From an uncultured Chloroflexia bacterium (GTDB taxonomy: Bacteria; Chloroflexota; Limnocylindria; Limnocylindrales; CSP1-4): 64,000 bases of DNA. The translations under genes were made by a program, and so were the position numbers. The notes below the pieces were generated by a model. The model had not been told where the DNA came from. It saw nothing but the letters and a program-made list of their open reading frames with translations, and did no database searches. The stretch is taken from the NCBI GenBank assembly GCA_963716025.1, contig CAVQSY010000068.1, positions 2,108-66,107 on the forward strand, given 5' to 3'. Of this stretch, positions 1 through 59,473 are shown in pieces (position 1 is the first letter of the stretch; each line of letters opens with the position of its first letter).

Positions 1-491
1 ATGACATGGCCACGGAGATCCTCGATCGACTGCAGGCCCGAGTCACGACGCGCGAAGAGGACGCTGCGGTACGAGGCTTCACCCTGTTTGAGGCGCCGGA
101 GCAACGGGCGGGCGCCGGTCTCGTGAACCACCCAGCTGACCGGGAAGGGGCTGTCCAGGTAGAGATCGACCTCCCCCTGGCCGAGATGCGTGCCGCGATC
201 GCACCCAGTGAAGACTCGACGACGACCCGAGCCCGACCGATCCCGACCGGGTGCAGACGCGACACCAGCTCCTCGGCGAACGCCATCACCTTGGCGTGCT
301 CGCGGGCCGGCTCGAGCGACACCGAACCGATCGTCAGCACTCCGGTCGGAGCGGCGTCGGCGGTCGGCGCCGACGGATGCCGCGACCGGCTCGCCGCAAC
401 CCACGATGGCCGCGAGCGCCACCGCCAGACACAGCTGCCACCACTTCACCGCCGCGACCCACCCGGCGGTTCCACGAGTTCTGGGCGTCAT
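1..491 (-). pseudogene. PhnD-like periplasmic binding protein, 5' part only (arm A copy of 17616..18605)
   Basis: The reverse complement matches 17616-18100, including the start codon (489-491). A 2-nt insertion near 186 breaks the frame. The rest of the gene would lie beyond the window start. Confidence 0.6.
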
Positions 492-560
492 GGCCTGGGC
501 ACTCCTCCGTTGAGTCGATCCAGGATCATCATAGTCGGCTTCGAGTCCGTCGCGGCCGGA

Positions 561-965
561 TCATTCGGCCGCTCGACGGCTCTGAGACGCCCCCAGAGCT
601 CTCGGACTCGCTCCGCCAGAGTCAGCGGATCGAAAGGTTTACGAATCACACCGATCGACCCGACGGTGAGCAGGTGCTGGACATCCTCCTCAAGCGCTCG
701 AGCCGTCAGAAAAACGACCGGCAGCTCGCGATCGCTGTCGAGGTTTCGGATCGCCGCCGCCACCGACGGCCCGTCCATGCCCGGCATCATCACGTCGAGT
801 CTATCACAGATGGGAGCGATCATCCGGAGTTTCTCGAGCGCCTCGGTGCCGCTGCCGCGTGAACCTGGAGAGCCCCAGACGCTCCAAGGCGAGCCAGAGC
901 ACATCCCGGATGTCCGGATCATCCTCCGCCACCAGTATCCGCTGAAGCGGTCGAGGCTCGGCCAT
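561..965 (-). pseudogene. CheY-like receiver response regulator, decayed arm A copy
   Basis: ORF 488..922(-) carries EALEKLRMIAP...DVMMPGMDGPSVAAAIRNLDSDRELPVVFLTARA, identical to 17135..17545. Clusters of indels and substitutions near 795-815 and 855-880 destroy the N-terminal frame. Confidence 0.7.
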
Positions 966-972
966 TCAGAAC

Positions 973-1449
973 CTACGGCAACACGCGGGTCCAGGTCGAG
1001 CTGCGGCCGAGCAGCGACACTCCGATGTACCCGCGCACGCGCAACTCGCCGTGGTCACCGAGGCGCACCTCTTGCACTTGTAGGTCTTGCCATTGTCCGG
1101 GTCGTAGATCGTGCCCTTGTGCCAGAGGTCGTCCCCGTCAAAGACGAAACCCTCCATGACGAGCAGCCCCGATGAGCGGGCGCGCCTGCAGGCCCTCGTC
1201 CGAATTCTCGCGATCGATCTTGGTCTGCCCCATCCCCTGATCGTCGTCGGCGGCGTACTCGGGCTTCTCCAACCACACGAGGCGGCCGTAGTACTTGCCA
1301 TCCTGCTTGAAGATCTCGACGTGACCGTTGCCGTCCTCGGCGTCGGGCTCGGTCGCCCGCAGACCGAGAATGGCATCGCCGTCGGCGGCCACAGCCCCTG
1401 GGCGGCCGCTGAAGCACAGCAGCATCAGCACCGCCATCGAAGTACGCAT
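973..1449 (-). pseudogene. DUF2147-like secreted protein, frameshifted arm A copy
   Basis: ORFs 1138..1449(-) and 966..1376(-) together match the intact 16651..17127 protein. The total length is the same (477 nt), but internal indels switch the frame. Confidence 0.6.
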
Positions 1450-1498
1450 CCATCACCTCCGTCGCCACATCTGCGCAGCACCATGATACCCGGGCGAA

Positions 1499-1523
1499 GG
1501 GGTCAGGGGTCAGGGGTCAGGGG
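1499..1523 (+). repeat. (GGGGTCA)3GGGG heptamer array, canonical G-quadruplex motif
   Basis: Four GGGG runs separated by TCA, between the divergent DUF2147 (-) and ABC-F (+) genes. Confidence 0.85.
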
Positions 1524-1646
1524 TCGGTTCGCGTTGAGCTGAGGTCAAGGCCCTCGTACCAGCTTTCTGGGACGGCTGCCGGGCGAGTGACCCCCTGCTA
1601 CCCGGACAGGTGCCCTTCGCCCGGGCATCCGGTATGCTACGCGGCC

Positions 1647-3578
<1,932 letters not shown>

Positions 3579-3657
3579 CGCCCCTCTGACGGGCTCAGCG
3601 CCTCAGCGGTTGGTGCTGATGTCCTGATTCCTGAGCCCTCGCAACACGCAACCTCCA

Positions 3658-4925
3658 TCACATCCCGCCGCAGGGCGTGGATGGTGAAGCCGTCGGCCTC
3701 CGGGCGGGGCAGGATGCGGACGCCGCCGGCCGCGGTGGGACGCGCCGGGCAGCACGGGGGCAGCAGGGGCAGCAGGTCGACCGACTCGAAGCCCGTGGGG
3801 ATCGGATCGAAGAGGCACTCGTTCTCCTCGGGCTCGACCGAGCAGGTCGCGTAGACGAGCACGCCACCGGCCCGCACGACCTCACGGGCCGACGCGAGGA
3901 GGCGCGCCTGGACGCCCGCCATCTCGGCGATACCGTTCGGCGACAACCGCCAGCGCAGCTCGGGGTGGCGGCGCAGGGTGCCGCTGCCGGAGCATGGCGC
4001 GTCGAGAAGCACGAGGTCGATCGAACGGGCGGCGAGAGGCGGCGCGGTGGCATCGGCCGCTGCCACGACCCCCGGCAGCAGACCCGCGACGAGACGGCTC
4101 CGGCCGAGATGCCGGTCGAGCGCCAGCAGACGCGTGCCGGGCCGACGGGCGGCCATCAGCGCGGCCTTGCCGCCAGGCGCTGCACAGAGGTCGACGATCG
4201 TCGCGGCATCGGGAGCGGCGGCCAGCGCGACCAGGGCCACGAGCTGCGAGCTCGGGTCCTGGGCATAGGCGCGACCGTCGGCAACCCGGTCGATCAGACG
4301 ACCGACCGGGCCCTCGGAGCGCCACGCCCCGGGGCACCACGGGTGGGGTTCAGAGGCACTCGTCCGGCGGCGCGCCGTGCGTCGATCCGGCGGCCGGGGT
4401 GCGCCACAGACCCACAGATCGGCCGGCCGCTGATCGGCCTCGAAAGCCGCCGTCGCCGCCTCGGTCCCGAAGTGCTCCGGCCGCGCCAGGCCGTTCCGGG
4501 TGTGGACGAGCGCTCTGCGGGAGATCCGTGAAACAGCAGACGATCGAGCTCGGGACCGGCGCGGCGCAGCACGGCGTTGACCAGGCCGGCCGCGCGCGGC
4601 GCCGTCGCCTTGGCGACCTTTTCCACGGCCTCGGAGACCGCGATCTGAACCGGGGGGTGCCTCATGCGCGACGCCTCGTAGAGACCGGCGTGCAGCACGG
4701 CTCGCTCACCGCCGGGTCGAGTCGGGCCCCCAGCCGCCTGGCGCACGTGCGGGCGCCAGCAGATGGTCGAGCGTGAGCTGCCAGCGCAGCGCGCCGAGGA
4801 CGATCTCGCGCGTTCGCCGGGCGCGGCGTTCGCCCAGGAGCCGGGCGGCGTGGGCACCCGCGGCGTCGACCCTGGCGAGCACCGCCGCCGCCCGCCGCCG
4901 CGGGTCAGCGGGAAGTGCTCGCCTG
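3658..4925 (-). pseudogene. rsmB: 16S rRNA m5C methyltransferase RsmB/Sun, arm A copy, frameshifted
   Basis: ORF 3236..4240(-) contains DLCAAPGGKAALMAA, LLDAPCSGSGTLRRHPELRW and VYATCSVEPEENE. One extra C at ~3665 removes the stop that arm B uses. The N-terminal part is spread over other frames. Confidence 0.7.
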
Positions 4926-5875
4926 GCGCAACCCGTTCTCCGAGAATGAAGGCGTCGGCGGGCAGCCGGCGGCGGCCCTCGCGCTGCAGCTCCGTGAGCA
5001 CCGCGATCTTCGATCCCTCGCCGCAGCGCACCGCGATGCCGGCGCCGGGTCTATGCCGATTCACCCCGTGCCCGGAGCCTCGTCGCCGGGGAGGAGTCGC
5101 GCGATCTCCCCAGGCCGTGCACCTTCGAGCCGGCCGCCGCGAAAGCTGCAGTCAGAGCCCCGGCCACGGGATCGAGCGCGCGGCTCCGACGCTGCCAGCT
5201 CCAGCGCGGGCGGGCTGCGACCAGTCGATTGTGGCGGCCGTGGCGGCGGTCGAGCTTCTCCGTCACCTTGCGCTGCAGGCGGCGCTGCTCTGTCTGGGCG
5301 ACGGCGGCGGAAGTACAGGCAGCCAGACCGGCGATCGTCTCGGCGAGCAGCTCGGCGCCGAGCCACGGCGAGCCGCTCGGCGAGCAGCTCCGCGGTGTCG
5401 CGCGCATCGATCGGAACCCGCCGCTGAAGCAGGATCGGCCCCGTGTCCATCCCCTCGTCGAGCAGCATGGTGGTCACCCCGGTCGGCCGGTCGCCGCGCA
5501 CCAGATCGCCCCCTCGATCGGTGATGGACCCCGATGCCGGGGCAGCAGGCAGGGGTGGACGTTCACGAAACCGAAGCGCGGCACCCCGAGGAGCTCGGAG
5601 GGGATCAGCTTCCCGTAGGCGACCACCACCGCCACGTCGGCGCCAACCTCGGCGAGCTCGGCCGCGAATCTCTCGTTCTTCAGTCCCTTGGGCTGGCTTA
5701 CCGCGAGGCCGTGGCGGTGCGCAACCTCGACTGCGGGCGGCGCCGTCAGCACCTGATGGCGCCCGATCGGCTGATCCGGCTTCGACACCACCAGCGCCAC
5801 CTGGTGCCGACTCGCCACCAGGCGCTCGAGCGTCGGCAGAGCGAACTCTGGCGTACCGAAGAAGACCGTCTTCAT
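4905..5875 (-). pseudogene. fmt: Methionyl-tRNA formyltransferase, arm A copy, frameshifted
   Basis: ORF 5474..5905(-) has MKTVFFGTPEFALPTLERL...VVAYGKLIP...FGFVNVHPCLLPRHRGPSPI. It continues in ORF 5061..5501(-) with GVTTMLLDEGMDTGPILLQ. Confidence 0.8.
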
Positions 5876-6009
5876 CACGCGGGAGTCTAACATCCGTGCC
5901 ACCACCCAGATTCTTTGCCCAGTAAGGCGAGGAATCTGGCTATCATGACCGTTTCAGGAGGCCGAGGGCCTCCCCTTGAGACGCTGTATACTTTCCCCCG
6001 GAGGGGCCG

Positions 6010-7991
6010 ATGACGGAGACCACGCCCGCCGCGATCCGTGCGGCGCTCGACGACATCCTGCCCGGGGTCCAGAAGCCGTCGCGCTACCTCGGGCTCGAGC
6101 GGAATCTGGTGCCGCAAGGCGCTGGGACGAGGTCGCGGTGCGGGTGGCCCTCGCCTTCCCCGACGCCTACGAGATCGGGATGAGCCACCGGGACGAAGAT
6201 CCTCTACGAGATCGTCAACCGCCGGGAGGGCCTCGCCGAGCGCAGCTACGCGCCGTGGGTCGACCTGGAGGAGGTGATGCGCGCACGCGACGTCCCGCTC
6301 TTCTCCATCGAGTCGTGCGCCCCGGTGCGCGACTTCGACGTCGTCGGCTTCTCCCTCCAGAGCGAGCTGAACTACACGAACGTGCCCGAACATGCTCGAC
6401 CTCGCGGGGATCCCGCTTCGCCGCCGAGCGCGGCGACGGCCGACCCGGTCGTCATCGGCGGCGGGCCCTGCGTCGCGAACCCCGAGCCGGTCGCCGACTT
6501 CTTCGACGTCTTCCTGATCGGCGACGCCGAGGAGGCGCTCGACGTCTTCCTCGACGCCGTCCGCGACGGCCGCGCCGCCGGGGCGCCGCGCCGCGACGGC
6601 TCCTCGCCGCTCGCCGGCGATCCCGGCATCTACGTCCCGTCCTCTACGACGTGGACCTACGGCGCGGCGGACGGCGCCGGCGGATCGCGTACGCGCTCGA
6701 CGACGACGCCCCGCTTCCCGGAGGCGAGCGGGTCTGGGTCGAGAAGCTCGACCCCGGCCGACCCCGGAAGCCCGATGGTCCCGTCCGTCGACATCGTCCA
6801 GGACCGCCTCGGCCTCGAGATCATGCGCGGCTGCACGCAGGGCTGCCGCTTCTGCCAGGCGGGCTACTGGTACCGCCCGGTGCGCGAGCTCGACCCCGCG
6901 GACGTCGCCCGGATGACGAAGGCTTCATCGACGAGACGGGCTGGTCGGAGGTCGGCCTCCTCTCCCTCTCCTCGGCCGACTACTCGCAGATCGAGCCGCT
7001 CGTGGTGTCCTCGCCGCCGAGCTCGCCGACGACGAAGGTCTCCATCTCGCTGCCGTCGCTGCGCGCCGAGGCCTTCTCGGTCGCCCTCGCCGACGCCGTC
7101 TCGGAGGTGCGGAAGTCGGGCTTCACGTTCGCGCCCGAGACCGGCTCCGACCGCCTCCGCCGCGTCATCAACAAGACCTTCACGAACGACGACATGGTGA
7201 AGGCCGCGCGCGTCGCCTTCGAGCGCGGCTGGGACCTGATCAAGGTCTACACGATGATCGGCCTCCCCACCGAGACGACGCCGACCTCGACGAGCTCGTG
7301 CACGCTCGTCGCGAACATCCTCGCCGAGGGCCGCCAGAAGCGCGGTGACGGCCGTCGGTCAACGTCTCCGTCGGCTCCTTCGTCCCGAAGAGCTTCACGC
7401 CGTTCCAGTGGTCCGCCGTTCGACGGCGTCGAGCTGCGAACGGAGAGATCCGCGTTCTCAAGGAGAAGCTTCCGCCGCATCCGCGGCGCCAAGCTGAAGT
7501 GGCACGACCCGAGCGAGGCCGAGATCGAGGCGCTGCTCTCGCGCGGCGACCGGCGGATGTCGCAGGCCCTCCTGGCGCCCACGACCGCGGCGCGCGGTTC
7601 GACGGCTGGTCGGAGCACTTCTCCTCGGCGCTGGCGGAGGCGCTCGCCGACGCGGGCGTCGAATCGCCGAGGAGCTGGCACCGCGCAGAAGGACCTCGGG
7701 GAGACGCTCCCCTGGGACGTCGTCGACGCCTCGTCCGCAAGCCCTTCCTCGTGGTCGAGTGGAAGAAGGGCGCAGCGCGAGATCGCAGACCGAGGACTGC
7801 AAGTGGGGCCACTGCTACCGCTGCGGCGTCCCCGGCAACGGCGAGGACACCCAGCTCGCGTCGTCTCGAGCCTGCCGGTGCTCGGCGAGCTGCTGCCAGA
7901 GGACGAGCGCCCAAGGCCGCCGCGTACCGCCGGCGACCTGCGCCTCGCGTCGCCCGCCGCGGCACCGAGCCCGCCCAGCCGCGGTCCATGA
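6010..7991 (+). pseudogene. B12-binding-domain radical SAM protein (TIGR03960-like), arm A copy, many frameshifts
   Basis: Recognisable segments: MTETTPAAIRAALDDILPGVQKPSRYLGLERN, FPDAYEIGMSH, GGGPCVANPEPVADFFDVFLIGDAEEA, EIMRGCTQGCRFCQAGYWYRPVRE (CxxxCxxC), INKTFTNDDM. Confidence 0.75.
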
Positions 7992-8619
7992 TCCGCTATC
8001 GCTTGACGTGGCGAAGACCGGGGACGCCCGCTTCCTCTCGCACCGCCAGGTCATGGACACCCTCGAACGGGTGCTGCGGCAGCGAGGCTGCCGGTGCGCT
8101 ACACCGAGGGCTTCAACCCTCACATCCGGCTGTCGATGGGGCCGGCACTGCGGGGTCGGTCACGCCGGTCTCGCTGAGATCTTCGACGTCGACTGCACCG
8201 CCCCGATCCGCGCGCCCCACCTCACCGCCGCGACCGCGCTCCTTCCGGCAGGGCTCGATGTGATCGACGCGCGGCCATTGCTCGCCGGCGCCCCGTCTCT
8301 CGGCAAGATGGTCGCCGCGGCACGCTATCGCGTCGCGGCCCCGCCGGCCGGGGAGTGGCCCGACACCCCCGACTCCCTGCCTGGAGAGATTCGCGCCGGC
8401 ATTCTGTCGTGGGACCGGCGTGAGGACGGGGCTCTCCGACTCGAGCTCAATCTTCGCCAGGAGGACGGGCCGATCGTGAGCGTCAAGTCCATCGCCGCCG
8501 CCCACGGGCTGGACGCCGCAACCGTCGTACGCCTTCGCGCCATCCGCGAGCGGCTCGTGCTCCGCCCACGAGCCGGCGCCGGCACCGCTGCCGGCACCGT
8601 GGAGGTCGCGACGACATGA
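7988..8619 (+). pseudogene. DUF2344/TIGR03936-like protein, arm A copy (about 3 frameshifts in the first ~170 nt, clean afterwards)
   Basis: MIRYRLTW / AKTGDARFLSHRQVMDTLERVLRQ / YTEGFNPHIRLSMGPAL. Its ATG overlaps the radical-SAM stop (ATGA at 7988-7991). Its stop overlaps the queD start (ATGA at 8616-8619). Confidence 0.65.
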
Positions 8620-8999
8620 GCCGCTGGGTCGTCCACTCCGAGACCGAGTTCGACGCCGTGCACGCCCTGACGACCTATCTCGGCGCGCCGGAAGTGCCGC
8701 ATACGCACCGCTGGCGGGTGGCGATCCGGGTCGGCACCGACCACCTTCACCCCGAGGGCTATGCGATCGACTTCCATGGCGTTCACCACCTTCTGGCAGA
8801 GGTCGTGGCGCCGCTCGACGGCGCCGACCTCAATCGCGAACCAGAGATTGGTGTACCGTCGCCGACCGCCGAGCGGCTCGCCGAGGTTGTCGCCAGTCGC
8901 CTGAGCCCACACTGTCACGCCATCGAGGCGCGGCTGCTCTCCGTCAGCGTCTGGGAAGGGCCCGGTAACCGGGTCGACCTCGAGCTCGACTCGCGCTGA
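8616..8999 (+). CDS. queD: 6-carboxytetrahydropterin synthase / PTPS-family protein (QueD-like), intact
   Basis: 127-aa ORF with a His-rich metal-site region (PHTHRW) and GYAIDFHGVHHLLAEVVAPLDGADLN, resembling the PTPS/QueD pattern. Confidence 0.7.
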   Translation: MSRWVVHSETEFDAVHALTTYLGAPEVPHTHRWRVAIRVGTDHLHPEGYAIDFHGVHHLLAEVVAPLDGADLNREPEIGVPSPTAERLAEVVASRLSPHCHAIEARLLSVSVWEGPGNRVDLELDSR

Positions 9000-9181
9000 C
9001 CGGCCAGTGCGGCCCGCAGGTCAGGCGAACCCGAAACCGGTCGGACCGACGGCCGAGGAGACGGCCTCGACGAGCTGAGCACCCGATCAAGGGTGCTCAG
9101 CTCGTCGAGGCCGTCTCCTCGGCCGTCGGTTCCGACCCGGTTTCGGGTTCCGCCTGACCTGCGGGCCGCACTGGCCGGTCA
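8998..9181. repeat. Palindrome centre: ~85-bp near-perfect stem around the 6-nt loop GATCAA (9085-9090)
   Basis: 8998-9084 versus the reverse complement of 9091-9180 differ only by three 1-nt length differences in short G or A runs. The stem starts right after the two facing queD stop codons (8997-8999 and 9179-9181). Confidence 0.9.
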
Positions 9182-9533
9182 GCGCGAGTCGAGCTCGAGG
9201 TCGACCCGGCTACCGGGCCCTTCCCCAGACGCTGACGGAGAGCAGCCGCGCCTCGAGGGCGTGACATGGCGACTGGCGACAACCTCGGCGAGCCGCTCGG
9301 CGGTCGGCGACGGTACACCATCTGGTTGGCGACGTCGGCGCCGTGAGCGCGTCTGCAAGGTGGTGGATCGCCAGATGGAAGTCGATCGCATAGCCCTGGT
9401 GAAGGTGGTCGGTGCCGAGCCGGATCGCCACCCGCGGCGGGTTTCGGTATGCGGCGCTTCCCGGCGCGCCGAGATAGGTCGTCAGGGCGCGCGGCGTCGA
9501 CTCGGTCTCGGAGTGGACGACCCAGCGGCTCAT
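9179..9533 (-). pseudogene. queD: QueD-like gene, decayed arm B copy
   Basis: Same start context and same C-terminal ...RLLSVSVW as 8616..8999. It is net 29 nt shorter, with many substitutions and indels between, and no single frame survives. Confidence 0.75.
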
Positions 9534-10152
9534 GTCGTCGCGACCTCCACGGTGCGGCGGTGCCGGCGCCGGCTCGTGGGCGGAGCACGAGCCGCACGCG
9601 GATGGCGCGAAGGCGTACGACGGTTGCGGCGTCCCAGCGGGCGGCGGCGATGGACTTGACGCTCACGATCGGCCCGTCCTCCTGGCGAAGATTGAGCTCG
9701 AGTCGGAGCCCCGTCCTCACGCCGGTCCACGACAGAATGCCGGCGCGAATCTCTCCAGGCAGGGAGTCGGGGGTGTCGGGCCGCCCCGCCGGCGGGGCCG
9801 CGACGCGATAGCGTGCACCGGCCGCCGTTGTTTGCCCGAGAGATGGTGTCCGGGGAGGAGTAGCACATCAAGCAGATCGAGGCGGTCCCAGAAGGAGGGC
9901 GCTCGGCGGCTGCGACCTGGCGCACGGCCGACCCCGGGGCGGTGCAGTGCGACGAAGATCTCGGCCCAGACCCTCGTGGCCGAGCGGCAGTGCCGGACCC
10001 ATCGACAGCCGGATGTGAGGGTTGAACCCCTCGGTGTAGTGCACCGGCAGCTTCGCTGCCCGCAACACCCGTTCAAGGGCGTCCATGACCTGACGGCGAG
10101 AGGAAGCGGGCGTCCGCCGGTTCTTCGCCATCGTGAAGCGATAGCGGCGATG
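9530..10152 (-). pseudogene. DUF2344/TIGR03936-like, arm B copy, frameshifted, start codon lost
   Basis: The reverse strand encodes RYRFTMAK...QVMDALERVLRAAKLPVHYTEGFNPHIRLSMGPALPLGHEG, then changes frame repeatedly. ATG is replaced by ATC at ~10150. Confidence 0.6.
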
Positions 10153-12121
10153 GACCTCGGCTTGACGGACCGGTGGAGCAGCGGCGGGCGGAACGCGAGG
10201 CGCAGGTCGCCGCCGAATAGGCAGCGACCTTCGGGTCCTGGTGCTGCTCCTGGCAGGAGCTCGCCGAGCACCGGCGGGGTGGCCGACGCGAAAGTAGTAT
10301 CCTGCCGTCGCCGGGGATGCCGCAGTGGTAGCAGTGGCCCCACTTGCAGTCCTCGGTTGCAAGCTCGCGCTGCGCCCGTCGCCACTCGGCCCCGCCGGTA
10401 GCTCTTTCGGACGCCGGCGTCGATCACGTCCCAGGGCAACGGAGCTGCGTTCGTCGCGGGCGCCGAGCTCGGCGCCGAGATCGACGCCCGTGTCGGCGAT
10501 CGCGCTCCGCCATGCGCCGAGGTTCAGATGGTCGGACCAACCGTCGAACACGGCGCCGTGATCGTGGGCGAGCGCGATGGTCCGGAACCGCCGATCGCCG
10601 CGCGACAGCAGTGTCGAGCGCCGACTCCTCGGGATCGGACCAGGTCAGGCGAGCCCCTTTGATGCGGCGGAAGCGGTCCCTGAGAACCCGGATTCTCCGT
10701 TCGAGCTCGGGCACCGGCACCAGACGGCTGCCACTGGAACGGGGTCCATGCCTTGGGCACGAAGCAACCGACGGACACCTTGATCTCGACCCGTCCACCG
10801 CGCTCCTGGCGGCCGGCGCGGACCGGGATTCCTCGGCGAGCACCGCGAGCTCCTCGAGGTCGTCGTCGCTCTCGGTGGGGAGCCCGACCATCGCGTAGAC
10901 CTTGATCAGGTTCCAGCCGCTGGCGAAGGCGGCGCGCGCTGCCTGGATCATGTCGGCATTGGAAAAGGTCTTGTTGATCACCCTCCGGAGGCGATCGGAG
11001 CCGTCTCGGCGCGAAGCGGGAAGCCTTTGCGGACCCGGGACAGCTGCCTCGGCGAGGCCGACCGAGAGCATCGGCGCGAAGGCTCGGCAGAACTGACGGA
11101 GACCCGCCGGTCAGCCAGGCGTTCGGCGAGCGAGTACACCAGCGGCTCGACCTGCGAGTAGTCGGCGGACGACAGGCTGAGCAGACCGACCTCCTCGAAG
11201 CCGCGCGCACCTGGGCGAGCATGCGGATTGGCGAACCACCTCGGGGTCGTGCTCCCGTACCGGCCGGTTCCAGTAGCCGGCCTGGCAGAAGCGGCATCCG
11301 GTACGCCGCGCATGATCTCCATGCCGACCCGGTCCTGGATGACCTCGGCGAACGGGACGATCGGAACCTCCGGCTGGTCGGCCGGGTCGAGATTCGCGAC
11401 CCAGACCCGATGGACCGGAAGCGGAGCGTCGTCGTCGAGCGTGACCCATCCGCCGGTCGGCCGGAGCCGGGGTTCCAGGCGTAGAAGGACGGCACGTAGA
11501 CGCCGTCGATCGCGGCGAGCCGGCGCAGCACCGTCCGCCGCAGCTCCCCGGCGGCGAGGCCGTCGCGGATGGCGTCGAGCATCGCATCGAGGGAGGCCTC
11601 GCCGTCGCCGATCAGGATGGCGTCAAAGAAGTCGGCGACCGGTTCGGGATTCGCCGTGCAAGGACCGCCGCCGAGCACGAAGGGCATGCCGTCGGCGCGC
11701 TCGGCGGCGACTGGGAATGCCGGCCAGGTCGAGTAGGTAGGGCACGTTGACGTAGTTGAGCTCGGACTGCAGCGAAATGCCGACCGCGTCGAACTCGCGC
11801 ACGGGGTGGTAGGACTCGAGGGTGTACAGCGGGACGTGAGCGGCGCGCATCGCGGCGGCCATGTCCGCATCGGAGCGTAACAGCGCTCGGCGAGGCGCGT
11901 CCGGTCGGCGGTTGACGAGGTGGTAGAGGATCCGCGCATCCCTGGTGGGACATGCCGATCTCGTAGGCGTCGGGGAAGGCGAGGGCCACCCGCACCGCCA
12001 CCTCGTCCCAGCCCTTGCGGGTCAGGTTCCGCTCCAGCCCCAGGTAGCGCGACGGCTTCTGGACCCCGGGCAGAATGTCATCGAGCGCCGCACGTATCGC
12101 GGCGGGCGTGGTCTCCGTCAT
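10153..12121 (-). pseudogene. Radical SAM protein (TIGR03960-like), arm B paralogue, many frameshifts
   Basis: ORF 11612..12121(-) has MTETTPAAIRAALDDILPGVQKPSRYLGLERNL...FPDAYEIGMSHQG. Further pieces: VPLYTLESYHPVREFDAVGISLQSELNYVNVP, EIMRG...CRFCQAGYWNRPVRE. Confidence 0.7.
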
Positions 12122-12255
12122 CGGCCCCTCCGGGGGAAAGTATACAGCGTCTCAAGGGGAGGCCCTCGGCCTCCTGAAACGGTCATGATAGCCAGATTCC
12201 TCGCCTTACTGGGCAAAGAATCTGGGTGGTGGCACGGATGTTAGACTCCCGCGTG

Positions 12256-13188
12256 ATGAAGACGGTCTTCTTCGGTACGCCAGAGTTCGCTCTGCCGACG
12301 CTCGAGCGCCTGGTGGCGAGTCGGCACCAGGTGGCGCTGGGGTGTCGAAGCCGGATCAGCCGATCGGGCGCCATCAGGTGCTGACGGCGCCGCCCGCAGT
12401 CGAGGTTGCGCACCGCCACGGCCTCGCGGTAAGCCAGCCCAAGGGACTGAAGAACGAGAGATTCGCGGCCGAGCTCGCCGAGGTTGGCGCCGACGTGGCG
12501 GTGGTGGTCGCCTACGGGAAGCTGATCCCCTCCGAGTTCCTCGGGGTGCCGCGCTTCGGTTTCGTCAACCTCCACCCGAGCCTGCTGCCCCGGCACCGGG
12601 GACCATCGCCGATCCAGTGGGCTCTGGTGTGCGGCGACCGGTCGACCGGCGTGACCACCATGCAGCTCGACGAGGGAATGGACACGGGGCCGATCCTGCT
12701 TCAGCGCCGGGTTCCGATCGATCCTCGCGACACCGCGGAGCTGCTCGCCCCGCGGCTCGCCGAGCTCGGCGCCGAGCTGATCATCGAGACCCTCGACGGG
12801 CTCGAGGCCGGCACCCTCGAACCGACTCCTCAGCCGAGCGACGGCGCCACCGTCAGCCCGATGCTCAGGCGGAACTTCGCCAAGGTCGACTGGACGATGC
12901 CGGCCCGCACCCTGGTCAATCGACTGCGAGGGCTGACGCCGTGGCCTGGGATCTACTGCAAGCTGCGCGGCGGGCGCGTCAAGCTCTTCGGGCTCGAGGA
13001 GGTGGTGCCGCCACCGGCCGGCGACGAGGAGCCTGGAGGGGTGGTCGCCGTGGAAAACGATGGCATCCTGGTTCGTTGCGGCCGAGGCACCGCGGTTCGA
13101 GTCACCGAGCTGCAGCGCGAGGGGCGTCGCGGATGCCGGTACGTGGCTGATCGGTGAGCAGGTCACCCGCGGTGAGCACTTCAGCTGA
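12256..13188 (+). CDS. fmt: Methionyl-tRNA formyltransferase, arm B copy (frameshifts near 12340 and 13130; 12342-13157 is one clean ORF)
   Basis: MKTVFFGTPEFALPTLERLVASRHQVAL, then ORF 12342..13157 with SKPDQPIGRHQVL...FVNLHPSLLPRHRGPSPIQWAL...GVTTMQLDEGMDTGPILLQ. Confidence 0.8.
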
Positions 13189-14420
13189 CCGCCTGACGGC
13201 GGCCCGGCTGTTGCTGCGGGTCGAGGCCGGCGCCTACTCGACGCGGCTGCTGGGCGGCGCGGCACATCCGGGTGTTCGCGTCCGGGTGCTCGGCGTGCTG
13301 CGCTGGCAGCTCTCTCTGGACCGGGCCCTCGAGGGTCGCGTCCGACGACCCGTTCCCGATCTCGACCCGGAGGTCCGCGTGACGTTGCGTCTCGAACTTC
13401 ACGACGGCGCCATCCTCGGCGTCCCCTGGCCGGTGGCGGTTGACGCCGCCGTGCGCCTGGTGCGCCGGCTCGGGCGGTCGTCGGCATCGGGGATGGTCAA
13501 CGCCGTGCTGCGCCGCGCCGGTCCCGAGCTCGATCGTCTGCTGTTTCACGGATCTCCCGCAGAGCGCTCGTCACACCCGGAACGGCGGTGGAAAGGCGGC
13601 GGAGCATCGGGACCGAGGGCTTCGGCGACGGCGGCTTTCGAGGCCGATCAGCGGCCGGCCGATCTGTGGGTCTGTGGCGCACCCCGGCCGCCGGATCGAC
13701 GCACGGCGCGCCGCCGGACGAGTGCCTCGAACCCCACCCGTGGCGCCCCTGGGCGCGCGCGTTCCGAGGGCCCGGTCGGTCGTCTGATCGACCGGGTTGC
13801 CGACGGTCGCGCCTATGCCCAGGACCCGAGCTCGCAGCTCGTGGCCCTGGTCGCGCTGGCCGCCGCTCCCGATGCCGCGACGATCGTCGACCTCTGTGCA
13901 GCGCCTGGCGGCAAGGCCGCGCTGATGGCCGCCCGTCGGCCCGGCGCGCGTCTGCTGGCGCTCGACCGGCATCTCGGCCGGAGCCGTCTCGTCGCGGGTC
14001 TGCTGCCGGGGGGTCGTGGCACGGCCGATGCCACCGCGCCGCCTCTCGCCGCCCGTTCGGTCGACCTCGTGCTCTGACGCGCCATGCTCCGGGCAGCGGC
14101 ACCCTGCGCCGCCACCCCGAGCTGCGCTGGCGGTTGTCGCGGAAGGTATCGCCGAGATGGCGGGCGTCCAGGCGCGCCTCCTCGCGTCGGCCCGTGAGGT
14201 CGTGCGGGCCGGTGGCGTGCTCGTCTACGCGACCTGCTCGGTCGAACCCGAGGAGAACGAGTGCCTCTTCGATCCGATCCCCACGGGCTTCGAGTCGGTC
14301 GACCTGCTGCCCCTGCTGCCCCCGTGCTGCCCGGCGCGTCCCACCGCGGCCGGCGGCGTCCGCATCCTGCCCCGCCCGGAGGCCGACGGCTTCACCATCC
14401 ACGCCCTGCGGCGGATGTGA
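13172..14420 (+). pseudogene. rsmB: RsmB/Sun methyltransferase, arm B copy, 2-3 frameshifts
   Basis: ORF 13154..14077 contains ...AYAQDPSSQLVALV...DLCAAPGGKAALMAA. ORF 14016..14420 contains ...VYATCSVEPEENE...FTIHALRRM* . Confidence 0.7.
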
Positions 14421-14499
14421 TGGAGGTTGCGTGTTGCGAGGGCTCAGGAATCAGGACATCAGCACCAACCGCTGAGGCGCTGAGCCCGTCAGAGGGGCG

Positions 14500-16451
<1,952 letters not shown>

Positions 16452-16574
16452 GGCCGCGTAGCATACCGGATGCCCGGGCGAAGGGCACCTGTCCGGGTAG
16501 CAGGGGGTCACTCGCCCGGCAGCCGTCCCAGAAAGCTGGTACGAGGGCCTTGACCTCAGCTCAACGCGAACCGA

Positions 16575-16600
16575 CCCCCTGACCCCTGACCCCTGACCCC
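16575..16600 (-). repeat. Mirror copy of the GGGGTCA heptamer array (G-rich on the minus strand)
   Basis: The plus strand reads CCCCCTGACCCCTGACCCCTGACCCC. Confidence 0.85.
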
Positions 16601-16650
16601 TTCGCCCGGGTATCATGGTGCTGCGGAGATGCGGCGACGGAGGTGATGGG

Positions 16651-17127
16651 ATGCGTACTTCGATGGCGGTGCTGATGCTGCTGGTGCTCGCGGCGGCCGC
16701 CCAGGCCGCGGCCGCCGACGGCGATGCCATTCTCGGTCTGTGGGCGACCGAGCCCGACGCCGAGGACGGCAACGGTCACGTCGAGATCTTCAAGCAGGAT
16801 GGCAAGTACTACGGCCGCCTCGTGTGGTTGGAGAAGCCCGAGTACGCCGCCGACGACGATCAGGGGATGGGGGGGCAGACCAAGATCGATCGCGAGAATT
16901 CGGACGAGGGCCTGCAGGCGCGCCCGCTCATCGGGCTGCTCGTCATGGAGGGTTTCGTCTTTGACGGGGACGACCTCTGGCACAAGGGCACGATCTACGA
17001 CCCGGACAATGGCAAGACCTACAAGTGCAAGGTGCGCCTCGGTGACCACGGCGAGTTGCGCGTGCGCGGGTACATCGGAGTGTCGCTGCTCGGCCGCAGC
17101 TCGACCTGGACCCGCGTGTTGCCGTAG
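16651..17127 (+). CDS. DUF2147-like secreted protein, intact
   Basis: Signal peptide MRTSMAVLMLLVLAAAAQAAAA, then GLW...GKYYGRLVWL...GTIYDPDNGKTYKCKVRL...LRVRGY, typical of DUF2147. Confidence 0.65.
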   Translation: MRTSMAVLMLLVLAAAAQAAAADGDAILGLWATEPDAEDGNGHVEIFKQDGKYYGRLVWLEKPEYAADDDQGMGGQTKIDRENSDEGLQARPLIGLLVMEGFVFDGDDLWHKGTIYDPDNGKTYKCKVRLGDHGELRVRGYIGVSLLGRSSTWTRVLP

Positions 17128-17134
17128 GTTCTGA

Positions 17135-17545
17135 ATGGCCGAGCCTCGACCGCTTCAGCGGATACTGGTGGCGGAGGATGATCCGGACATCCGGGATGTG
17201 CTCTGGCTCGCCTTGGAGCGTCTGGGGGGCTTCGAGGTTCACATGTGCGGCAGCGGCACCGAGGCGCTCGAGAAACTCCGGATGATCGCTCCCGATCTGG
17301 TGATACTCGACGTGATGATGCCGGGCATGGACGGGCCGTCGGTGGCGGCGGCGATCCGAAACCTCGACAGCGATCGCGAGCTGCCGGTCGTTTTTCTGAC
17401 GGCTCGAGCGCTTGAGGAGGATGTCCAGCACCTGCTCACCGTCGGGTCGATCGGTGTGATTCGTAAACCTTTCGATCCGCTGACTCTGGCGGAGCGAGTC
17501 CGAGAGCTCTGGGGGGCGTCTCAGAGCCGTCGAGCGGCCGAATGA
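17135..17545 (+). CDS. Single-domain CheY-like response regulator, intact
   Basis: ILVAEDDPDIR...DLVILDVMMPGMDG...VVFLTA...GVIRKPFDP. Confidence 0.85.
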   Translation: MAEPRPLQRILVAEDDPDIRDVLWLALERLGGFEVHMCGSGTEALEKLRMIAPDLVILDVMMPGMDGPSVAAAIRNLDSDRELPVVFLTARALEEDVQHLLTVGSIGVIRKPFDPLTLAERVRELWGASQSRRAAE

Positions 17546-17615
17546 TCCGGCCGCGACGGACTCGAAGCCGACTATGATGATCCTGGATCGACTCAACGGA
17601 GGAGTGCCCCAGGCC

Positions 17616-18605
17616 ATGACGCCCAGAACTCGTGGAACCGCCGGGTGGGTCGCGGCGGTGAAGTGGTGGCAGCTGTGTCTGGCGGTGGCGCTCGCGGCCA
17701 TCGCTGGTTGCGGCGAGCCGGTCGCGACCCCGTCGGCGCCGACCGCCGACGCCGCTCCGACCGGAGTGCTGACGATCGGTTCGGTGTCGCTCGAGCCGGC
17801 CCGCGAGCACGCCAAGGTGATGGCGTTCGCCGAGGAGCTGGTGTCGCGTCTGCACCCGGTCGGGATCGGTCGGGCTCGGGTCGTCGTCGAGTCTTCACTG
17901 GGTGCGATCGCGGCACGCATCGGCCAGGGGGAGGTCGATCTCTACCTGGACAGCCCCTTCCCGGTCAGCTGGGTGGTTCACGAGACCGGCGCCCGCCCGT
18001 TGCTCCGGCGCCTCAAACAGGGTGAAGCCTCGTACCGCAGCGTCCTCTTCGCGCGTCGTGACTCGGGCCTGCAGTCGATCGAGGATCTCCGTGGCCATGT
18101 CATCGCATTCGGTGAGCCGTTCTCGACGTCCAGCTTTCTGCTGCCAAAGGCGAGCCTCGTCGAGCGGGGACTGCAACTGGAGCGCTACGAGGATCCGGCC
18201 GCCGACGTCCCGGACGATGTCATCGGCTACGTGTTCTCGAACGACTCGGAGAACACGATGATGTGGGTTCTCAAACACCGGATCGTGGCAGGAGCGGTCA
18301 ACGCCGACTACTTCGAGTACATGGCCGGAGAACGGCGAAGCGAGCTGATCGTGCTCCTCGAGTCCGAAGATGTGCCTCGAAACATCGTCTGCTGCCGCCG
18401 CGACCTGCCGGCGGAGGTGCGCGATGCCATCGAGGTGGCGCTGCTCGACCTCCATCGCGACGAGAAGGGGCGTCAGGCGCTGCTGCGGTTCGAGGAGACG
18501 GCTCGATTCGATCGGTTCCCGGTCGATCCCGAGGAGGCCCTGGCTCGGGTTTCCGCACTGCTGCCATTCGTCGAAGACGATCTGGGCGGGCAGGTGCGAC
18601 GGTGA
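17616..18605 (+). CDS. PhnD-like (phosphonate/phosphate ABC-type) periplasmic binding lipoprotein
   Basis: Lipobox LAAIAGC. YRSVLFARRDSGLQSIEDLRGHVIAFGEPFSTSSFLLPK and AGAVNADYFEYM resemble the PhnD-family fold. The 5' end may instead be at 17574. Confidence 0.6.
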   Translation: MTPRTRGTAGWVAAVKWWQLCLAVALAAIAGCGEPVATPSAPTADAAPTGVLTIGSVSLEPAREHAKVMAFAEELVSRLHPVGIGRARVVVESSLGAIAARIGQGEVDLYLDSPFPVSWVVHETGARPLLRRLKQGEASYRSVLFARRDSGLQSIEDLRGHVIAFGEPFSTSSFLLPKASLVERGLQLERYEDPAADVPDDVIGYVFSNDSENTMMWVLKHRIVAGAVNADYFEYMAGERRSELIVLLESEDVPRNIVCCRRDLPAEVRDAIEVALLDLHRDEKGRQALLRFEETARFDRFPVDPEEALARVSALLPFVEDDLGGQVRR

Positions 18606-20365
18606 TCCGCCGGCTCTCGTTGTACTGGCGGATCCTGGCGGTGGTGGCGGTATTCGTGCTCGGCTTCGGCGTCGTCGTGGCGTTGCTGGCGGTTCGACTC
18701 CAGTCGGACCGCCTGCGCAGCGAGCTGGTCGAGCGTGGTCGGCTCCTGACAGCAGTCGCTGCCGCCAATGCCACGGACGCCCTCGTGCTGCTCGAGATCC
18801 AGGAGCTGCGAGGCATGCTTGGCGAGCTGCGGGCGCAACCCAGCGTCATCGATGCTTTGGCGTTCGACGAGGAATGTCGGGTGTTGACCGACGGGACCTT
18901 TGACAACCTGCGCCGCCACGAGAAGGTGAGCGAGGCCGAGTGCGGGCATGCGATGGTCGGTGGCGACACCATGGTCGCGATGGGCAAAGACGCGCTGGTT
19001 CTGACCCGGCCGGTGCTGGTGGGAGGCGAGCTGCGGGGCGGGGTGAGGGTGGTGTTCTCGATGGACTCGCTGGCGCGAGAGCGGGCGCTGCTGGCCCGGC
19101 GGACGGCACTCGCTGGGATCGCCTTCGTGCTCTTGGGGGTGGTGGTGTCGACGTTCGTGGCGCGTACGATCACCCGGCCCCTGGCTCGACTATCCGACGC
19201 AATCGGGGTCGTCAGCGGGGGCGAGACGCCGCCACCGATCCCGGTCGAAGCCCGGGACGAGGTCGGCCAGCTGGTCGAGGCGTTCAACGAGATGACTCGA
19301 CGGCTGCGGGAGACCACCGTGTCCCGAGACTCTCTACGCCAGGTGCTGCGAAACATGGGCGAGGCCATCGTGGTCATTGAGCCCGACGGGTGTATTCGGC
19401 GCATCAATCCGGCAACCTGTTTCCTGCTCGGCTACGCCGAGAACGAGCTCGAAGGGCGTGCGTTCACCCAGTTGCTGGTCGGTGGCGACGAGCCCGACCC
19501 CCTGGCGACCGCCTTTGCCAGACGCGAGTCGGCGCATGGTGTCTCGAGCCGATTGCGGTCGCGGATCGGAGAATTGGTGCCAGTGCTGGCTTCGTTCTCG
19601 GTCATGCGTCGTGACATCGGTGAGCTCGACGGATTCGTCTGCATCGCCCGGGACCAGCGCGAGTTGCTCCAGGCCGAGCGTCTGAAGGACGAGTTCCTGT
19701 CGGTGGTCAACCACGAGCTGCGCACGCCGCTGACATCGATTCGCGGCTCGTTGGGCCTGCTCAAAGGCGGCGTGGCCGGCGCCCTCGGACCGGAGGCCCT
19801 CGACCTTGTCGAGCTCGCCGACCGAAACGGCGAGCGTCTCCAGCGTCTCATCGACGATCTCCTGGACAGTCACAGGATCGAGGTCGGCGAGATGCCCTTC
19901 CGATTCGAGGAGGCCACGATCGGGCCGATCGTCAGCCGGTCGATTGACGTGGTCCGGGGGCTCGAGGCGCGCTACGGGGTGCGCTTTCAGCTCGACCTCG
20001 AGGCGCCCGAGGCGCGCGTGCGCGTCGATGCCGAGCGTCTCGAACAGGTGCTGGTCAACCTGCTCTCCAATGCCGCGCGGCATGCACCTACGGCGACCGC
20101 CGTACGGCTGGCCGTCGAGCCGCGCCAGGGACACCTCCGGATCGCCGTCTCCGACTCCGGTCCCGGGATCCCGGTCTCGTTCCGGCCCCGGGTCTTCGAG
20201 AAGTTCGCCCAGGCCGAAGGCTCGGATCACCGTCGCGCCGACGGCTCCGGGCTCGGGCTGGCGATCTCCCGTGCCATCGTGAAGCGCCTCGGTGGAGAGA
20301 TCGGCTTCGACACCGAGGAGGGTCGGGGCACGACGTTCTGGGTAGATCTTCCGGTCATCAGCTGA
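18602..20365 (+). CDS. Sensor histidine kinase (TM-HAMP-PAS-HisKA-HATPase)
   Basis: The GTG start overlaps the upstream stop (GTGA at 18602-18605). HAMP: PLARLSDAIGVVSGG...VGQLVEAFNEM. H-box: NHELRTPLTSIRG. N and G boxes: LLSNAARH, DSGPGIP, GSGLGLAISRAIV. Confidence 0.85.
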   Translation: MIRRLSLYWRILAVVAVFVLGFGVVVALLAVRLQSDRLRSELVERGRLLTAVAAANATDALVLLEIQELRGMLGELRAQPSVIDALAFDEECRVLTDGTFDNLRRHEKVSEAECGHAMVGGDTMVAMGKDALVLTRPVLVGGELRGGVRVVFSMDSLARERALLARRTALAGIAFVLLGVVVSTFVARTITRPLARLSDAIGVVSGGETPPPIPVEARDEVGQLVEAFNEMTRRLRETTVSRDSLRQVLRNMGEAIVVIEPDGCIRRINPATCFLLGYAENELEGRAFTQLLVGGDEPDPLATAFARRESAHGVSSRLRSRIGELVPVLASFSVMRRDIGELDGFVCIARDQRELLQAERLKDEFLSVVNHELRTPLTSIRGSLGLLKGGVAGALGPEALDLVELADRNGERLQRLIDDLLDSHRIEVGEMPFRFEEATIGPIVSRSIDVVRGLEARYGVRFQLDLEAPEARVRVDAERLEQVLVNLLSNAARHAPTATAVRLAVEPRQGHLRIAVSDSGPGIPVSFRPRVFEKFAQAEGSDHRRADGSGLGLAISRAIVKRLGGEIGFDTEEGRGTTFWVDLPVIS

Positions 20366-25605: not shown

Positions 25606-25692
25606 CTTCTCACCACAGAACCCTAGGCGTCAGCTTCTGCGGGCCTCTCCGCCCTCTGCGATTCAAGACGAAGCTTTTCACCGTAGAGGACG
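25606..25692. repeat. Short-period intergenic repeat element (TCTCACCACAGA / CTCTGCGAT type)
   Basis: CTTCTCACCACAGAACC ... CTCTGCGATTCAAGACGAAGCTTTTCACCGTAGAGGACG lies between the convergent HD-GYP and topA genes. It belongs to the same motif family as 31712-32060. Confidence 0.5.
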
Positions 25693-25706
25693 TCGTGGGT
25701 GCGCAG

Positions 25707-28410: not shown

Positions 28411-29040
28411 AGGTCCCCTAGGAGAGCCGACATGCCGACCCTTGTCAAGCTCGGGGCTTCCGCTCGGCGACCGTCCGCGGGCCCTCCGAAGCAACGGAAG
28501 TGTGTCCCGGCGCGGTCGGTTGCCGCCTCGTCCCCGAGCCCCGCTCTGCTATGATCCGTTGCTGTCGCGGCACGCGATCGGAGGCTGGCAGATGGGTCCG
28601 TGGTTGGTCGATGTGGCACAACGCAATGAGCTCGATCCCTGGCTCAGGGCACCGACCCGGTTCCCTACCAGCCGGTCGTGCTGATCGTACGCGGTGACGA
28701 CGACGTCATGCGGGAGCTGCTACCGAACGCCCTCGACGCCGCCAAGATCGCACCGGCGCACCGGGTGGTCTGTGGGTGAAGGACCCGGCGCTGCTCAAGG
28801 ATGAGGAAGCCGCGACGTTATTCAGCAGCAGCGGCGAGCTCGGAGTGGCGATCGTGCGCCGCGGTGCGTCTCCGACGGAGCCATCCGGGTGAAGACGCCC
28901 TGTTGATTGTAGGCGCCGATCGCACTCGGCAGTCGGCGATGCGCTGCGTCGCCGTCGGGAGTCAGGCCACATCCGGTGGGCTGGACACGTCCTGGTGCCG
29001 ATCCGCTCCCGCGCCTGGCCGTGTGAACTGGAGAGACACG

Positions 29041-31708: not shown

Positions 31709-31711
31709 GCG

Positions 31712-32060
31712 GGACAGGCCTTCTCACCACAGAGGAACGAAGATCCTGCGCGGGCCCACCCGGAGCCTGGCAGCAGGTGATGAACCACAGGCCCACAAGG
31801 GCACGGAGCTGAGGGTCTGGCGGACCCGCAGACGCAGTACGGCGGCATCTCGCCCCGATCGGGAAGCGCCCTCTGCGATCCTCTGCGCCCTCAGCGGTTC
31901 AATACGTGGATTCTCACCGCAGAGGACGCAGAGGATCGCAGAGGAGCCGAAGCGGGAGTCTCGGGCGTGCAACCGAGAACCGACAGGCGAGTCGGTTGCG
32001 GTGTGCATGGGTGTCCGTTGGTGGTTCTCTGTGACTCTGGGTCTCTGTGGCGAGAGATGC
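31712..32060. repeat. Cluster of short-period intergenic repeats (TCTCACCACAGAGGA / CGCAGAGGATCGCAGAGGA and their complements)
   Basis: TTCTCACCACAGAGGAACGAAGATCC; CCCTCTGCGATCCTCTGCGCCCTCAGCGGTTCAA; TTCTCACCGCAGAGGACGCAGAGGATCGCAGAGGA; GGTTCTCTGTGACTCTGGGTCTCTGTGGCGAGA. Forward and inverted copies occur. Confidence 0.7.
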
Positions 32061-39017: not shown

Positions 39018-39028
39018 TCAGGCCCGAG

Positions 39029-39250
39029 CCCGATCCCGGATGAGTTTCGCGACCCGAGCCGGGAATCCGGGACCGGGCGGCAGGCCGCGGGGCGCCGGAC
39101 CTGGACCCCGGGGTCCCGGTCCAGCCGCCCGCTGCCCGCCGCCCGATCCCGGATGAGTTCCGCGATTCGAGCCGGAGAATCCGGGACCAGGCAGGCAGGC
39201 CGCGGGGCGCGGGTGCGGGGGCGACCGGGAGGCTCCGGGATCCGGGATGC
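39029..39250 (+). repeat. Two tandem copies (R1, R2) of a ~110-nt repeat starting CCCGATCCCGGATGAGTT(T/C)CGCGA
   Basis: R1 starts at 39029 and R2 at 39142. Both contain ...GAGCCGG(A)GAATCCGGGACC.GGC.GGCAGGCCGCGGGGCGC. Confidence 0.75.
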
Positions 39251-39850: not shown

Positions 39851-39926
39851 CATCCCGGTCTCGCGGACGGGCCCCGCAGGATCATGAGTCGTGTGCCCGG
39901 ACACCTTTCCTTCCAGCCGCTCGCCG

Positions 39927-46635: not shown

Positions 46636-46665
46636 ACGGGTATCCAGTGCTATTCTCGGTTTGAT

Positions 46666-54723: not shown

Positions 54724-54733
54724 GAGGACGACC

Positions 54734-59463: not shown

Positions 59464-59473
59464 GAGGACGACC

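Follow-up and report, generated by a model that had tools for sequence, protein, structure and literature searches.

A large palindrome in a metagenome contig of an uncultured Thermoanaerobaculia bacterium is very probably a fold-back artefact

Gene content and centre of the palindrome

The window, the whole 64,000-bp stretch of DNA analysed here, opens with a large inverted repeat. In a self-blastn of the window, positions 1–18103 align with 18103–1 at 85.1% identity (bit score 19421, E = 0), which bears out the original prediction of mirrored arms of ~9 kb. Arm A (1–9084) is the reverse complement of arm B (9091–18103); arm against arm, 1–9084 pairs with 18103–9091 over 9264 columns that include 947 mismatches and 259 gap openings. 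The mirror continues to position 1, so that the window start cuts arm A, as had also been proposed. The contig of origin measures 71,396 bp, leaving at most 7.4 kb outside the window.

From the centre outwards, arm B carries queD (9182–9533, minus strand, badly frameshifted), a radical SAM/DUF2344 gene (9530–12121, minus, frameshifted), fmt (12256–13160, plus, one frameshift at codon 28), rsmB (13172–14414, plus, frameshifted) and an ABC-F gene (14489–16451, minus, frameshifted), followed by intact plus-strand genes for a DUF2147 protein (16615–17127), a response regulator (17135–17545) and a PhnD-like protein (17574–18605). The gene order runs on into the right flank, which contains HK (18263–20365), DUF4388, TetR and PGK genes, with HK and DUF4388–TetR ordered as in related genomes. 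Arm A is the mirror copy. It starts with a partial PhnD-like gene (about 1–530, minus) and continues through genes for the response regulator (about 559–969, minus), DUF2147 (about 977–1449, minus) and ABC-F (1647–3578, plus, frameshifted), then rsmB (about 3665–4950, minus, frameshifted), fmt (4940–5875, minus, broken over three frames), radical SAM/DUF2344 (6010–8619, plus, frameshifted) and queD (8616–8999, plus), the sole intact gene in this arm.

Phosphonate-bd, DUF2147, ABC_tran, Radical_SAM, DUF2344 and PTPS were assigned via Pfam, and rsmB, fmt and the response regulator via tblastn using orthologues. This orthologue-guided tblastn replaced GC3-based gene calling, which was too noisy at 70% GC; blastx against the full ORF set of the related loci was left unused because antisense ORFs confounded the matches. 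These assignments confirm the genes predicted and their mirrored order, except that the nine genes become eight, as radical SAM and DUF2344 form a single fused gene of about 870 aa in relatives. Rfam and tRNA scans of the window returned no RNA genes.

The centre (9085–9090) reads GATCAA, flanked by GACGAGCTGAGCACCC on the left and GGGTGCTCAGCTCGTC on the right. It is a perfect palindrome about GATC with two bases extra (core, CACCC-GATC-AA-GGGTG), and because GATC is itself symmetric the true spacer is 0–2 nt. No adapter-like sequence was found at the palindrome centre. The centre cuts a conserved HTH_17/response-regulator gene about 21–22 codons before its stop, and both arms end at the identical nucleotide within this gene. 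Arm A retains the last ~21 codons (9022–9084, minus), ending in GAQLVEAVSSAVGPTGFGFA and the stop, and arm B has the mirror copy (9091–9162, plus), which reads PIKGAQLVEAVSSAVG and is then frameshifted. The intact gene is convergent to queD in the three closest relatives (L001, L089 and L090). Its remaining part is not in the window.

Relatives carry one copy of the locus, which in them lies at an unremarkable position within the chromosome, on contigs as long as 2.5 Mb. The single-copy order HK–PhnD–RR–DUF2147–ABC-F–rsmB–fmt–rSAM–queD could be assembled piecewise from related loci. No large inverted repeat is present in the 86 related loci fetched; inverted repeats of at least 300 nt in this set comprise two weak examples of 482 and 311 nt, at 68% identity. 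A 40-mer from the window start gave zero matches to JGI metagenome contigs, and exact-protein look-ups with two window proteins came back empty. For queD, L001-type relatives are closest and the best is only 83% identical, so there is no independent assembly of the locus in the collections.

Frameshifts and the identity mosaic

All palindrome genes are frameshifted in one arm or both, and none is intact in both: queD is intact in arm A only, fmt is nearly intact in arm B only, and neither arm has an unbroken rsmB, ABC-F or radical SAM/DUF2344. Gaps in the arm-to-arm alignment are mostly short (1 nt in 166 of 259 runs and 2 nt in 51), with homopolymers holding half of the inter-arm indels in high-identity context, and mismatches between the arms are spread nearly evenly over codon positions 1, 2 and 3 (0.22, 0.21 and 0.32). 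Genes outside the palindrome are frameshifted too (topA and those for a class I aminoacyl-tRNA synthetase, a DEAD-box helicase and a Reg_prop/Y_Y_Y/GGDEF protein), a spread that we also followed with a phase-switch profile; consensus quality is therefore poor over the whole contig. A second duplication (54629–57410 and 59369–62134) shows the same mosaic, with one copy clean and one frameshifted. Gene breakage on this scale reflects sequence quality, because a viable genome could not bear such damage. The original prediction made no mention of frameshifts in the palindrome genes.

Identity between the arms is itself a mosaic, at 93–100% in positions 1–1784, 3235–4428 and 5604–6200 and 62–86% elsewhere. 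Hundreds of bases of poorly conserved or intergenic sequence pass without a mismatch (for example 3532–3831 and 5604–5903). The diverged blocks lie mostly over better-conserved gene bodies, and the flanks in arm A differ from arm B by small indels only. Divergence weakly follows conservation: the better a bin is conserved among clean relatives, the lower the identity between the arms tends to be, a moderate anticorrelation (Spearman −0.41, p = 0.05, 23 bins).

There are three diverged blocks. Block 1 (1785–3234, plus; partner 14847–16313) covers the ABC-F gene body and is frameshifted in both arms; its in-frame peptides represent an L070/L001-like allele in arm B and a different one in arm A. 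Block 2 (4429–5603, minus; partner 12527–13652) spans the C-terminal two thirds of fmt and the N terminus of rsmB. Here arm B is in frame and its protein is 84–85% identical to that of L001, and arm A is split over three frames; for fmt, what sets arm A apart is confined to this lower identity and the three broken frames. Block 3 (6201–8235, plus; partner 9901–11929) is the radical-SAM core, in which in-frame peptides of arm B are 80–91% identical to L001 and those of arm A are 73–84% identical to the L081–L085 clade and much less so to L001. The C-terminal end of the arm A radical-SAM gene is L001-like (A_pep4, 71%). Differences between arm B and L001 carry a clear codon signature (0.10, 0.06 and 0.31 at positions 1, 2 and 3).

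Judged by sequence similarity, arm B has the native allele in all three blocks (nearest MAG, GCA_964553295.1), the radical-SAM core of arm A comes from another Thermoanaerobaculia clade than that of arm B, and the ABC-F core of arm A is a clearly different allele. Sequencing noise alone as the source of the divergence was rejected for the radical-SAM and ABC-F blocks, as the in-frame peptides of arm A match real proteins of other lineages well. A search for the donor of the differing alleles turned up no near-identical source; the best hit was 88% identical and covered 47% of the peptide stitched together from arm A. Neither fmt nor ABC-F adjoins radical SAM in the two L081–L085 loci whose upstream sequence extends to about 10 kb, or in L087 or L088. 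Gene order in the L081–L085 clade thus differs, and the foreign part would therefore be a gene core and not a genome segment.

Origin of the palindrome

We consider it very likely that the palindrome is a technical artefact, arising from a fold-back chimeric read or mis-assembly, in a metagenome contig of low accuracy, most probably built from long reads, that derives from an uncultured member of the Thermoanaerobaculia (Acidobacteriota). Its halves lie on opposite strands of the same locus about GATC and 2 nt, it is absent from the 86 related loci, and its junction breaks the normal gene order. The real locus would be arm B and its right flank, with the genome past queD entering the convergent HTH_17/response-regulator gene, whose expected C terminus reads PIKGAQLVEAVSSAVGPTGFGFA. 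A fold-back chimeric read, or an equivalent fold-back by the assembler, would have reversed inside this gene, and the contig would then have been extended back along the opposite strand to produce arm A. During consensus building and polishing the two arms may have competed for reads. Reads of the same organism on both copies would leave them identical save for small indel errors; at the better-conserved ABC-F, fmt and radical SAM genes, reads of a related organism could also have aligned and overwritten arm A, and arm B near the centre would have stayed poorly corrected. We infer the read-level mechanism and the sequencing platform, together with the polishing of the arms by different read sets after the fold-back, for which competitive polishing is a plausible mechanism.

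The original prediction held that the diverged blocks exclude a fold-back and favour a real, old structure or a chimera of two genomes. This is not supported: arm A has different alleles in the radical-SAM and ABC-F cores and flanks that differ by small indels only, a pattern that fits a locus present as two copies that were polished from separate sets of reads, and not old paralogues. Among the three explanations put forward at that time, a fold-back or chimeric artefact fits best, and an inverted duplication and a hairpin telomere fare poorly. For a genuine inverted duplication (TID-type or palindromic), with the frameshifts and differing alleles as assembly noise on top, it can be said that the structure exists in the deposited sequence, that an in-gene junction is expected of illegitimate rearrangement, and that noise found contig-wide is by itself no argument against an underlying duplication. 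We nevertheless regard it as very unlikely. From what is established about long palindromes and SbcCD, high instability would be expected of one of at least 9 kb with a 0–2-nt spacer, and this one would double fmt and rsmB, which are usually single copy. None of the 86 related loci has the repeat, the window contains no complete version of the truncated regulator gene, and such duplications are far rarer than fold-back read artefacts. A classical TID has three copies (direct–inverted–direct) and two junctions; two copies and one junction are visible here, in a repeat whose left end falls beyond the window start. An ancient duplication should show codon-aware divergence and one intact copy of each gene, but 217 of the 259 indels are 1–2 nt long and rsmB, ABC-F and radical SAM are broken twice. 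Its arms should also be equally related to an orthologue, or both be found in relatives, but the radical-SAM core of arm B goes with L001 and that of arm A with L081–L085. A real spacer-less inverted duplication of at least 9 kb, fmt and rsmB included, in which one arm was patched by recombination with alleles of a distant relative and the frameshifts are noise, is highly improbable.

A head-to-head chimeric join of homologous loci from two related organisms in the sample would account for the radical-SAM core of a different Thermoanaerobaculia clade and the different ABC-F allele in arm A. This is very unlikely, because poorly conserved and intergenic stretches have zero mismatches despite an allele difference of about 25% in other places, the segments that differ stay within gene bodies, the clade that the arm A radical-SAM core resembles has another gene order there, and both arms terminate at one nucleotide in one gene. 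A whole-arm chimera of two genomes was rejected because poorly conserved sequence includes blocks free of mismatches. The earlier suggestion of a two-genome chimera survives only in the narrow sense that sequence of a second organism is probably present in the contig, and not as an end-to-end fusion of segments from two genomes. The remaining candidate, a replicated hairpin-telomere junction of a linear replicon, has as its sole support the near-absent spacer at the centre. Such a junction would have a telomere resolution site at its centre, located at a replicon end and outside any gene, and the replicon would encode a protelomerase of the ResT/TelK/TelN type. It is scarcely conceivable, given that the centre truncates a conserved response-regulator CDS that is intact in the closest relatives, that the arms are not identical, that the locus is chromosomal and internal in relatives, and that no protelomerase was found among the selected window ORFs scanned against Pfam.

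If it were real, a stable spacer-less palindrome of at least 9 kb that doubles essential translation genes would call into question present knowledge of palindrome instability in bacteria. As an artefact, its value is practical only, in showing clearly how a long-read metagenome contig with a fold-back duplication can mimic an old, diverged one. The copies seem to recruit different reads in polishing, resulting in a mosaic of identical and roughly 75%-identical sequence that imitates gene conversion. Any search for unusual genome architecture should begin by screening contigs for frameshift density, for junctions in conserved genes and for alleles that disagree with their flanks on the closest relatives.

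Comparison with known systems

The structure resembles TID and palindromic amplifications in bacteria in being an inverted multi-gene copy with its junction in a gene. A TID, however, has three copies and recent, identical arms, whereas here two copies are visible, every gene is damaged and relatives are without the structure. Multiple displacement amplification chimeras (Pacasus, bioRxiv 10.1101/173872) likewise give long artificial spacer-less palindromes in long reads, but there is no sign that the sample here was amplified.

False duplications and chimeras have been reported in long-read metagenome assemblies (10.1101/2025.04.22.649783). The contig shares with these errors its duplicated segments, patches from another population, indel-broken ORFs and a second duplication at 54.6–62.1 kb. 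Most of the errors described in that work are direct false repeats and chimeras of whole segments, in contrast to the palindrome analysed here. The latter is a particular combination, an inverted copy whose alleles differ in gene cores only, and we did not find it described in that paper.

Fold-back (duplicated-inversion) chimeric reads (Heinz, Meyerson & Li 2026, PMC12870357) occur in both ONT and PacBio data and leave inverted duplications in assemblies; fewer than half have sequence between their halves, and those without adapter-like sequence at the centre are common (PMC12870357). The palindrome differs from such reads in that it is known from the assembled consensus alone and in that its halves have drifted apart, through different polishing errors and the non-native alleles of arm A. 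It matches them in having halves on opposite strands of one locus and a central breakpoint with essentially no intervening sequence at an arbitrary point, which here lies in a gene (PMC12870357).

Mirrored arms and the gene cut at their centre

When the window is compared with itself, 1–18103 pairs with its reverse complement (85.1% identity, bit score 19421), bearing out the predicted mirrored arms of about 9 kb. The 9264-column alignment of arm A (1–9084) with arm B (18103–9091) contains 947 mismatches and opens 259 gaps. At the centre the sequence is ...GAGCACCC GATCAA GGGTGCTC...; because GATC is itself symmetric, only 2 nt are strictly non-complementary. Mirroring extends to position 1, so the window edge cuts arm A; a protein search places the window's own queD on a 71,396-bp contig, which therefore continues for at most 7.4 kb beyond the window. 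The predicted mirrored gene order also holds: Pfam detects Phosphonate-bd, DUF2147, ABC_tran/ABC_tran_Xtn, Radical_SAM, DUF2344 and PTPS in the mirrored arms, and tblastn with orthologues places rsmB, fmt and the response regulator in mirrored order.

The nearest relatives are metagenome-assembled genomes (MAGs) of the Acidobacteriota, class Thermoanaerobaculia, the closest being GCA_964553295.1 (loci L001 and L007; queD protein identity 77%). No same-species sequence was found in the collections searched, the top queD match being 83%. Assembled from several related loci, the single-copy order is histidine kinase (HK)–PhnD-like–response regulator–DUF2147–ABC-F–rsmB–fmt–radical SAM (rSAM)/DUF2344–queD, with rSAM and DUF2344 fused in a single gene of about 870 aa. 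Arm B shows this same order, and its right flank (HK, DUF4388, TetR) agrees with the neighbours in relatives. A scan of 86 related loci turned up only two inverted repeats of at least 300 nt, both weak (482 and 311 nt, 68% identity).

The peptide ...GAQLVEAVSSAVGPTGFGFA* is encoded on the minus strand of arm A directly before the centre and is mirrored in arm B. It is the C-terminus of an HTH_17/response-regulator gene that converges with queD in the three nearest relatives, ending in ...RPVKGAQLVEAVNTAIAPAGLGFA in L001 and ...RPIKGAQLVEAISSITGPTGFGLA in L089 (P0242), with a partial convergent gene at the equivalent position beside queD in L090. About 22 of its approximately 198 codons are present at the centre; the remainder, and the genes that follow in L001, are absent from the whole window. 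Fold-back chimeras and illegitimate rearrangements produce mid-gene breakpoints of this kind.

Consensus quality across the contig

The 259 gap runs between the arms are mostly short (1 nt in 166, 2 nt in 51 and 3 nt in 28) and are not codon-aware, and 16 of the 32 indels surrounded by high-identity sequence fall within homopolymers. Orthologue-guided tblastn finds rsmB, ABC-F and rSAM/DUF2344 broken in both arms. The queD gene is intact in arm A and lies in two frames with many deletions in arm B, and fmt is in frame only to codon ~127 in arm A and carries one frameshift, at codon 28, in arm B. Such damage in both arms is a consensus-quality problem, as no genome could carry it. Outside the palindrome, topA, a class I aminoacyl-tRNA synthetase, a DEAD-box helicase and a Reg_prop/Y_Y_Y/GGDEF protein (25678–28619, 29090–31812, 32359–33879 and 46636–49604) are also split over frames; these genes are single copy, and poor consensus quality is therefore contig-wide. 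A codon-phase-switch profile shows noisy stretches throughout the window (for example 28–34, 36–44, 48–54 and 58–62 kb) beside cleaner ones. The stretch at 18.1–25.6 kb (HK, DUF4388, TetR, PGK, HD-GYP) looks clean.

We suspect a long-read assembly, since split genes also occur in related ENA contigs whose names follow the Flye style (contig_N); the platform is inferred. Frameshifted genes are common among available genomes of the relatives' group: fmt is in two pieces in GCA_964553295.1 (L001 2839–3777), and rSAM/DUF2344 is split in two (484 and 196 aa) in L087 (10001–12694), an ENA contig named in Flye style.

A direct repeat (54629–57410 and 59369–62134; 84% identity) is mosaic like the palindrome, with a 100%-identical block (55795–55994) beside blocks of 56–69% identity. 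Copy 1 contains an intact 748-aa ORF (55125–57368) with no Pfam hit, and copy 2 is spread across three frames. The repeat is a second false duplication or else two paralogues blurred by poor consensus, and suggests more than one such assembly problem in the contig. A further pair lies alongside (52583–53024 and 58623–59101).

Elsewhere, a GC-rich unit of ~113 nt, itself partly palindromic (39065–39154), with copies at 39028–39219 and 39912–40105, looks like a REP- or MITE-like intergenic element. Nested inverted repeats at 39298–39457 (outer arms 30 nt, 93% complementary, 100 nt apart; inner arms 27 nt, 89% complementary, 30 nt apart) match no Rfam family, and a short C/T-rich tandem array of CCTCACC-like units (period ~7–14 nt) occupies 40170–40249. 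Across the 64-kb window (1–64000), scans for tRNA genes and for Rfam families at the gathering threshold found none.

Mosaic divergence between the arms

Arm-to-arm identity is 93–100% in 1–1784, 3235–4428 and 5604–6200, including several 300-column windows with zero mismatches, and 62–86% across three diverged blocks covering the ABC-F body (1785–3234), the fmt C-terminus and rsmB N-terminus (4429–5603) and the rSAM core (6201–8235). Identity tends to be lower where clean relatives are more conserved (Spearman −0.41, p = 0.05, 23 bins); the arms tend to diverge where reads of a remote relative could still be aligned.

Across the diverged blocks, arm B lies 8–10 percentage points closer than arm A to its best-matching relatives. 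Mismatch fractions at codon positions 1/2/3 are 0.10/0.06/0.31 for arm B versus L001, a clear signature of purifying selection, and a nearly flat 0.22/0.21/0.32 for A versus B. Arm B rSAM peptides are 80–91% identical to L001. The in-frame rSAM peptides of arm A show 73–84% identity to a distinct clade (loci L081–L085) and far lower identity to L001, and its ABC-F peptides represent a different allele; we therefore reject noise alone as the explanation of arm A in these two blocks. In the fmt block, the evidence is limited to a lower similarity of arm A to relatives and its breakage across three frames.

The C-terminal end of the same arm A rSAM gene is L001-like (71%), and the window queD is closest to L001-type relatives. 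In the two L081–L085 loci that have ~10 kb of upstream sequence, and in the related contigs L087 and L088, rSAM lacks an adjoining fmt or ABC-F, so the foreign part of arm A is a gene core and not a genome segment. This Thermoanaerobaculia clade keeps rSAM/DUF2344 apart from fmt, rsmB and ABC-F, unlike the L001/L005 group, and the surrounding gene order therefore varies by clade.

Origin of the palindrome

As an observation the palindrome is confirmed, but it very probably does not reflect a real feature, and its biological interpretation is unsupported. A replicated hairpin-telomere junction, one option in the original prediction, is contradicted, because the breakpoint falls arbitrarily within a conserved gene. 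Head-to-head joining of loci from two organisms could account for foreign alleles, but a whole-locus join of this kind is very unlikely because the arms include stretches without mismatches in poorly conserved sequence. A real inverted duplication concealed under sequence noise is improbable. The diverged blocks had been taken to favour a real, old structure or a two-genome chimera, but the foreign alleles are confined to gene cores, the A-versus-B codon positions are nearly flat and the indels ignore codons.

The frameshifts, the mosaic and the gene cut at the centre best support the remaining option, a fold-back or chimeric assembly artefact. The contig would have been turned round within the response-regulator gene, by a chimeric fold-back read or by the assembler folding back, and extended along the opposite strand, after which the two copies would have been polished using different read subsets. 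Both copies of one locus probably competed for reads in consensus and polishing, and reads from a second organism may have overwritten arm A within conserved gene bodies. Fold-back reads are known from ONT and PacBio, typically forming 1–4% of genomic reads in one study, with searchable sequence between the halves in fewer than half of them (PMC12870357), and long-read metagenome assemblers are on record as producing false duplications, chimeras and ORFs broken by indels (10.1101/2025.04.22.649783).
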